From sequence record ON470597: DNA of 21,562 nt. The stretch is one strand, 5' to 3'. The stretch is from Escherichia phage vB_EcoS-569R3. Positions within the stretch are counted from its first letter, which is position 1; every line of letters starts with the position of its first letter. Under the pieces are notes generated by a model. That model was not told where the DNA came from and made no database searches. It worked only from the letters and a program-made list of their open reading frames with translations. Shown here piece by piece: positions 18,393 through 18,525 of this stretch. The position numbers and the translations under genes were made by a program.

Positions 18393-18491
18393 TAAAAAAA
18401 TCCCGCAGTGATCGCGGAGCTGCGGGGACAGACAAATGAAGATCAATGTTAAGGAGTTGTTTTTGTTACTCGGGCAAAAAAACACTAACGC
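18393..18491 (-). ncRNA. Candidate small RNA (~100 nt) on the minus strand in the I-J spacer
   Basis: Minus strand has a sigma70-like promoter, TTCACA (18525-18520), 16-bp spacer, TATAAT (18503-18498); about 90 nt downstream is a hairpin CCCCGCAG-(11 nt)-CUGCGGGG (forward 18401-18427) followed by U7 (forward A-run 18393-18400). No ORF with a start codon in the transcribed segment. It contains a C/A-rich stretch (AACAAAAACAACUCC). Confidence 0.45.
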
Positions 18492-18497
18492 AGCGAA

Positions 18498-18525
18498 ATT
18501 ATAAGCGCCACAGTCAGTGTGTGAA
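18498..18525 (-). promoter_or_regulatory. Sigma70-like promoter (-35 TTCACA, 16 bp, -10 TATAAT) driving the candidate sRNA
   Basis: Perfect -10 hexamer and 5/6 match at -35 with 16-bp spacing, read on the reverse complement. Confidence 0.45.

Follow-up and report, generated by a model that had tools for sequence, protein, structure and literature searches.

A putative small RNA gene between prophage tail genes I and J, by homology a variant of the Hfq-binding EcOnc22/23/24 family

In phage lambda, a gap of 60 bp lies between the tail genes I and J. In Escherichia phage vB_EcoS-569R3 (sequence record ON470597), the same two genes stand 342 bp apart and the DNA between them has a GC content of 43%, against 57% for the window, as the 21,562-nucleotide stretch analysed here will be called. 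The question raised by this locus is what the spacer encodes and, if the product is an RNA, whether that RNA is already known and how it might act. The original prediction, made from the sequence alone, had described an AT-rich spacer of this length carrying on its minus strand a near-consensus sigma-70 promoter, a transcribed segment with no plausible start codon or open reading frame, and a GC-rich hairpin with a U7 tail just past the stop codon of I; each of these elements was recovered here. The I-J junction of the window is 100% identical to that of 'Enterobacteria phage PPompW_699' and of many EHEC chromosomes, and the phage that carries the unit is a lambdoid prophage of the PPompW type. 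Runs of N (masked or unknown bases) occur in the window at 9101-9162, 10451-10460 and 17726-17747, the last of these inside K.

Anatomy of the spacer unit

The features of the region are collected in Table 1. Apart from the pair of hexamers TTCACA-16-TATAAT, neither strand of the 21.5-kb window has a sigma-70 site that reaches 11/12, and the number of such sites in first-order Markov resamples of the window is 0.11. Transcription from this promoter is predicted to give an RNA that contains no AUG; in-frame GUG and UUG codons are its only candidate starts, and all of them are without a Shine-Dalgarno sequence. The fold of the whole RNA is unremarkable (z-score -1.2). At its 3' end, the terminator stem CCCGCAG/CUGCGGG is formed by 18426-18420 and 18408-18402, and the U7 tract (18400-18394) ends 6 nt past the I stop codon. 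The terminator scan called no terminator-like site on the plus strand at this hairpin, where an A-run precedes the stem and no T-run follows it.

Table 1. Features of the I-J region and neighbouring tail genes (positions in the window)
Feature	Position	Strand	Basis and remarks
Tail gene L	16344-17042	+	Pfam
Tail gene K	from 17053	+	Pfam
Tail assembly gene I (flanking gene)	17807-18388	+	Pfam Lambda_tail_I
Tail tip/host specificity gene J (flanking gene)	18731-21562, runs off the window	+	Pfam GpJ FNIII/Ig domains; so annotated in LC567826
Dyad TCTGA-N6-TCACA, CRP-like	18528-18543, just upstream of -35	-	Kept in 121/121 copies; 9/10 to TGTGA-N6-TCACA
-35 hexamer TTCACA	18525-18520	-	Promoter scan, 11/12 together with -10, 16-nt spacer
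-10 hexamer TATAAT	18503-18498	-	Promoter scan; 16 nt from -35
Predicted small RNA transcript, ~97 nt	18491-18394	-	Family covariance model hit, 111.8 bits, E 9e-19; alignment to Sakai Sp15 unit
A-rich (AAN)4 tract AACAAAAACAAC, candidate Hfq distal-face site	18467-18456	-	3-4 AAN repeats in every allele, sequence differs
Most conserved single-stranded block UCCUUAACAUUGAUCUUCAU, candidate seed	18436-18455	-	Column conservation in family alignment
Intrinsic terminator: 7-8 bp GC stem, 11-nt loop, U7	18427-18394	-	Terminator scan, fold, alifold consensus
Mini-ORF MKINVKELFLLLGQKNTNAAKL, 22 codons	18436-18504	+	Opposite strand to the small RNA; 39-41 aa in other alleles

The candidate seed block contains CUCCUUA, seven bases that are those of the anti-Shine-Dalgarno end of 16S rRNA. 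Upstream of the promoter lies a dyad. Class II CRP-dependent promoters carry a TGTGA-N6-TCACA site centred near -41.5; the centre of the dyad lies at about -44.5 from the predicted start, 3 bp off this classical position. Its right half, TCACATTT, is a perfect CRP match and, judged by this consensus, the box may be a CRP site.

A second hairpin lies farther into the spacer at 18592-18665, strongest at 18596-18633, with a GC stem of 10-12 bp flanked by A- and U-tracts (-31.9 kcal/mol, z = -6.8). This very stable structure has the look of a bidirectional terminator and belongs to an extra stretch of ~100 bp that is specific to the window's type of spacer, and one locus of the family (L049) is without 47 bp that include it. 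Other alleles have at this position a different hairpin, GGCACCC..GGGTGCC, with one compensatory change (GGCATCC..GGATGCC). Upstream of the 18592-18665 hairpin is a weak promoter-like site on the minus strand (TTGCCA-18-TATCCT, 9/12, 18670-18699), from which a second minus-strand RNA of ~70 nt, reaching to ~18596, could be made.

The Sakai homologues and the wider family

The original prediction left undecided whether the locus was one of the small RNAs described from prophages of pathogenic E. coli or a new one. Comparison with the Sakai prophages answers this: judged by homology, the unit belongs, as a variant allele, to EcOnc22/23/24 of E. coli O157 Sakai, an Hfq-binding prophage family that has been published and is functionally uncharacterized. 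The family is thus known and the allele is new, and the proposal of a phage-encoded small RNA is strongly borne out by a homologue in the same I-J slot and on the same strand. EcOnc22/23/24 were found by Hfq crosslinking in prophages Sp15/Sp14/Sp11, antisense to tail genes (Tree et al. 2014, PMC4104026, Table S2). In the same study they gave a Northern band of ~85 nt, were classed as 'Destabilised' in an hfq deletion and were among the reproducible Hfq targets. A 2021 review gives their targets as unknown. A search for the RNA sequence in the full text of papers matched only unrelated plant primers.

The published EcOnc coordinates (PMC4104026, PMC5286369) refer to NC_002695.1, and relative to NC_002695.2 they are displaced by ~+135/136 nt at 1.94-2.90 Mb and by ~+129 at 5.11 Mb; AgvB1 at 1.94 Mb and StxS/tR' at 2.93 Mb (both >120 nt) served as anchors for the version shift. 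In NC_002695.2 the EcOnc22/23/24 loci are the I-J spacers of Sp15/Sp14/Sp11, on the strand antisense to the tail genes. Chimeric reads labelled EcOnc22/23/24 in an RNase E-CLASH study carry the fragment GCCTGAAAAATAACTCCATAACGTTAATCTTCA (Waters et al. 2017, PMC5286369), which corresponds exactly to the body of the Sakai spacer unit. This fixes the old-to-new offset at +135, and thus the Hfq peak covers the body of the small RNA. After correction, the Sakai peak extends from a point 3 nt short of GCCUG as far as the terminator loop, and the Sakai counterpart of the candidate seed block lies inside both the peak and the CLASH fragments. In one of the supplementary tables of PMC5286369, the names 'asxR2' and 'asxR1' stand at the EcOnc22 and EcOnc21 loci, respectively, in what looks like a labelling quirk.

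Window and Sakai units can be aligned from the upstream box and promoter to the U7 tract, with about 73-78% identity (blastn to Stx-phage copies). Overall they are about 75-77% identical, a divergence of about 23-25%. They share the I-J slot, the antisense strand, the promoter spacing, the TCTGA-N6-TCACA box with the -10 hexamer 24 nt downstream, the 5' end, the U-run and AAN tract, the AACUCC..AUCUUC core and the terminator with U7. They differ in the loop and A-tract, which are 6 nt longer in the window (GAGUAACAAAAACAAC against UGAAAAAUAAC in Sakai), in the core (CCUUAACAUUG against CCAUAACGUUA), and in the candidate seed, which reads CCUUAACAUU in the window and CCAUAACGUU in Sakai. The predicted length is ~97 nt for the window RNA and ~89-91 nt for that of Sakai. 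The window promoter, TTCACA/TATAAT, is much better than the TTCCGG/AATAAT of the Sakai allele. Expression, size, Hfq binding and Hfq-dependent stability have been demonstrated by others for the Sakai allele specifically; the window allele is presumably expressed as well.

Among the EcOnc22-24 CLASH lines retrieved, the Sakai partners are the yjbJ coding region (ECs5028), ECs5349, ECs4701, an antisense RNA and rRNA, with one or two reads each. Most of the retrieved chimeric fragments start at the same G of GCCUG, ~17 nt into the predicted transcript, which suggests a 5' end processed by RNase E after the U-rich stretch. One CLASH chimera maps to the 3'UTR of I on the tail-gene strand of Sp11 and Sp15, indicating that this strand is transcribed in lysogen cultures. 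It counts in favour of a cis-acting role, in which the RNA would pair as an antisense with the late tail mRNA of its own phage, or of a related one that enters the cell, at the I-J spacer, and so trigger processing (by RNase III, for example) or alter J expression. Complementarity to the spacer mRNA is perfect by construction, and where several prophages have identical copies, each RNA would act on the late mRNAs of the others. Nevertheless, we consider this reading unlikely. The I stop codon and the ribosome-binding site of J both lie outside the RNA, and in the window the J start is 240 nt away; the small RNA is a product of lysogens, in which there is essentially no expression of the late operon; and dependence on Hfq together with an ARN motif is typical of small RNAs acting in trans.

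Beyond Sakai, IMG/VR was scanned with the terminator pattern, which returned 120 loci with 121 copies in 48 distinct variants. These prophage copies fall into at least six allele classes. All alleles keep the dyad, a -10-like hexamer, the GCGUUA/GCAUUA 5' end, the U-run, three or four AAN repeats, the core block AACUCC(U/A)UAAC(A/G)UU(G/A)AUCUUC and the terminator. Variation is found in the -35 region, in the A-tract sequence, in the loop that separates the U-run from the A-tract and in the linker leading into the terminator. The -10-like hexamer (TATAAT, AATAAT, GATAAT or TATCAT, and GATAAA in one copy) stands 6 nt upstream of the GCGTTA/GCATTA 5' end in all 121 copies, and the dyad is found 24 ± 1 nt from it, again in every copy. 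The half-sites of the dyad are invariant, while its N6 spacer and the adjoining -35 region vary. In the RNAalifold consensus the terminator is the sole shared structure and the body upstream of it is single-stranded; the stem is invariant in the retrieved set, so that no covariation signal is possible, because the retrieval pattern fixed it.

A covariance model built from 17 variants scored the window unit at 111.8 bits, the Sakai Sp14 and Sp11 copies at ~107 bits (107.3), phage PhiR12_1 at 96 and phage 1720a-02 at 82. Of 5426 complete E. coli genomes, 1808 carry the family; together they hold it at 5505 places, with a median of two and a maximum of ten copies per genome. An allele at least 99% identical to that of the window is carried by 886 complete chromosomes, and carrier strains include O26:H11, O111, O103 and O145 with PPompW. 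No annotated feature lies under the unit in any listed complete-genome record. Searches next to I homologues in other species covered 13 loci, and the RNA was found only beside near-identical I genes of the E. coli type; the model gave no match beside more divergent I genes, namely those of E. ruysiae, Enterobacter, Pseudocitrobacter, Pantoea and Rahnella. Three contigs assigned to Streptomyces flavalbus, Parendozoicomonas haliclonae and a Clostridiales MAG (L127, L129 and L136) carry the small RNA together with a gene I whose protein is 90-97% identical to that of the window. They are almost certainly E. coli contamination of those assemblies.

Rfam yielded no family: the whole window gave no match at gathering thresholds, and in a permissive E-value search of 18300-18800 every match was well below the gathering threshold of its family. 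An RNA gene that occurs in a third of complete E. coli genomes, often in several copies, is thus without an Rfam model.

The alleles also bear on the opposite strand, where the mini-ORF of Table 1 could be read as a micro-protein gene of the late operon, with the minus-strand signals incidental. The ends of the mini-ORF are common to the alleles that hold it (MKINV.ELF at the N-terminus, NVK.FRNFIPS at the C-terminus), the 6-nt indel between window and Sakai is in frame, within the first nine codons three of four changes are silent, and phage PhiR12_1 has it annotated as a hypothetical protein. The reading frame is, however, intact in fewer than half of the 121 copies. Its start is lost, by change to ACG or by deletion, in whole allele classes, changes in the length of the A-run shift the frame in several copies, and in the window it is truncated to 22 aa by a TAA inside the complement of the small RNA's -10 region. 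The plus strand of the dyad bases encodes the conserved C-terminus, but these codons show changes in the spacer of the box that are non-synonymous while the half-sites are unchanged. As the published Hfq-CRAC and Northern signals also come from the strand opposite the mini-ORF, we regard a protein gene as barely credible here.

The junction accepts other cargo. In Sakai Sp10 (L144, 8485-9202) and at locus L136 (100-520) it holds a gene for a Cu/Zn superoxide dismutase, sodC, on the antisense strand, followed by a hairpin of its own and then by a degenerate small RNA unit without the usual promoter, which scores ~57 bits (56-58). Three other loci (L007, L014 and L035) have a second, diverged unit in tandem, ~280 nt upstream of the main one. 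Together, sodC and the tandem units identify the I-J junction as a cargo hot spot. The second units have the same TTTCTGAA..TTCACA box, a AACTCCTTAAGG core and a different terminator (CTCCCG..CGGGAGCGTTTTTT).

With degenerate and duplicated units at a site of cargo insertion, the window unit might be thought a decaying moron relic, a promoter and terminator left behind after the loss of a gene such as sodC and transcribed without function. Decay, however, would hardly keep promoter spacing, 5' end, AAN motif, core and terminator across at least six diverged allele classes and thousands of genomic copies, nor is it what the place of the Sakai RNA among reproducible Hfq targets would lead one to expect. 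This explanation is therefore highly unlikely.

The A-rich tract and GcvB

The original prediction had drawn attention to a C/A-rich stretch in the RNA, of a kind that can pair with GU-rich seed regions of Hfq-dependent small RNAs such as GcvB. On this reading the RNA would be an anti-sRNA sponge acting as a GcvB decoy in the manner of AgvB. In the window allele the tract reads AAC AAA AAC AAC. Most of it is predicted to be engaged with the 5' U-run, in a weak A-U hairpin, and its unpaired probability is ~0.1-0.2.

Pairing was evaluated with the GcvB sequence of the MG1655 record by windowed duplexes, taking into account the opening energies of both partners. The best local duplex between the RNA body and GcvB is indeed located at the R1 seed (GcvB nt 68-90), and sponges of the AgvB type likewise join ARN repeats to a terminator. 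The duplex is nevertheless weak and interrupted by internal loops, with a hybrid energy of -13.1 to -13.9 kcal/mol, compared with -19 to -21 for AgvB. Once accessibility is taken into account, the window RNA has an energy of -2.8 kcal/mol, the Sakai allele one of -7.2 and AgvB one of -13.4; the first of these was reached by ~22% of 60 shuffles of the window RNA body and the AgvB value by none of 60. CACAACA, the consensus of GcvB R1 targets, is absent from the RNA. The C/A tract, besides being predicted to be paired in the window allele, is not conserved in sequence between alleles. No GcvB hybrid was present among the EcOnc22-24 CLASH lines retrieved, while AgvB-GcvB gave 82 hybrids in the same study. 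The ~42-nt 3' scaffold of AgvB, AsxR and EcOnc03 (GTATCTCATGC..TTGCCCGAACCCAYTCGGGC) gave no match with up to three mismatches anywhere in the window.

Lacking CACAACA, with a weak corrected pairing that shuffled sequences often equal and with no GcvB hybrid among the retrieved CLASH lines, the RNA is most improbable as a sponge for GcvB, and that reading was rejected. Since the alleles conserve the repeat pattern of the tract rather than its sequence, it is better explained as an (AAN)n motif, a candidate ARN site for the distal face of Hfq. Internal AAN repeats are combined in the window RNA with an intrinsic terminator whose U tail (U7) has at least six residues, an architecture like that of class II Hfq-dependent small RNAs.

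Mode of action and related small RNAs

Taken together, the unit is probably an independently transcribed small RNA gene, an RNA moron between I and J that, as an allele of EcOnc22/23/24, would be expressed in the lysogen, stabilized by Hfq and active in trans. The anatomy is that of a moron because the unit has its own promoter and terminator, is low in GC and lies between two late genes; the cargo is an RNA and not a protein. According to the mechanism proposed here, the sigma-70 promoter would fire in lysogenic cells, convergently with a late operon that is silent there and possibly helped by a factor that binds the invariant TCTGA-N6-TCACA box, and transcription would end ~97 nt on at the intrinsic terminator. 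Hfq would bind and stabilize the RNA in a class II-like manner, with the U7 tail on its proximal face and the (AAN)4 tract on its distal face. RNAs of the host or of a prophage may then be its targets in trans, bound by base pairing with the conserved single-stranded block beside the A-tract (CUCCUUAAC-AUUGAUCUUCAU); ribosome-binding regions would be the most likely sites.

The differences between alleles invite a wider and more tentative proposal, which we think rather doubtful. The I-J RNAs may be diversifying multicopy Hfq regulators that combine a fixed scaffold with allele-specific recognition, each allele retargeting a different RNA of the host or of a rival phage, with expression tied to carbon status through the CRP-like box. 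If this were true, the window allele, with its perfect anti-SD-like CUCCUUA and a strong promoter, would have a target of its own, such as a surface receptor or a host small RNA. Whatever the merit of this proposal, the family is now seen to comprise alleles with differences in their probable recognition region, to occupy a cargo hot spot open also to sodC and to have an invariant CRP-like promoter box, and these findings provide a concrete entry point to the role of the RNA in EHEC and EPEC lysogens.

Several known small RNAs were compared with the unit. Class II Hfq small RNAs of the ChiX and MgrR type resemble it in sequence architecture, with the same internal ARN/AAN repeat, Rho-independent terminator and long U tail. 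AgvB, AsxR and EcOnc03 are, like the window family, prophage-encoded, short and Hfq-binding (for the window allele, presumptively so), and end in an intrinsic terminator; they are also multi-allelic families in which the scaffold is conserved and the A-rich 5' part varies. They differ in being 51-60 nt long and unrelated in sequence, and in occupying a moron site that follows PR', in the interval from PR'/Q to the lysis genes, whereas the window unit lies between the tail genes I and J. Identity with any of the three was rejected on sequence and position. HnrS (that is, EcOnc10-12), EvrS and EsrF were likewise rejected as names for the unit, all three being other loci.

HnrS (EcOnc10/11/12) has been reported to repress the host hha mRNA at its ribosome-binding site (PLoS Pathog 2026, PMC13502914). 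Unlike the I-J RNA, it is 66 nt long, has another locus and sequence, and is enriched in LEE-positive strains. It is nonetheless similar in being a multicopy, Hfq-dependent small RNA from the late region of EHEC and EPEC prophages. By analogy, its action on hha is a plausible model for how the I-J RNA acts, and the CUCCUUA of the window's seed block would suit pairing with ribosome-binding sites in the same way.
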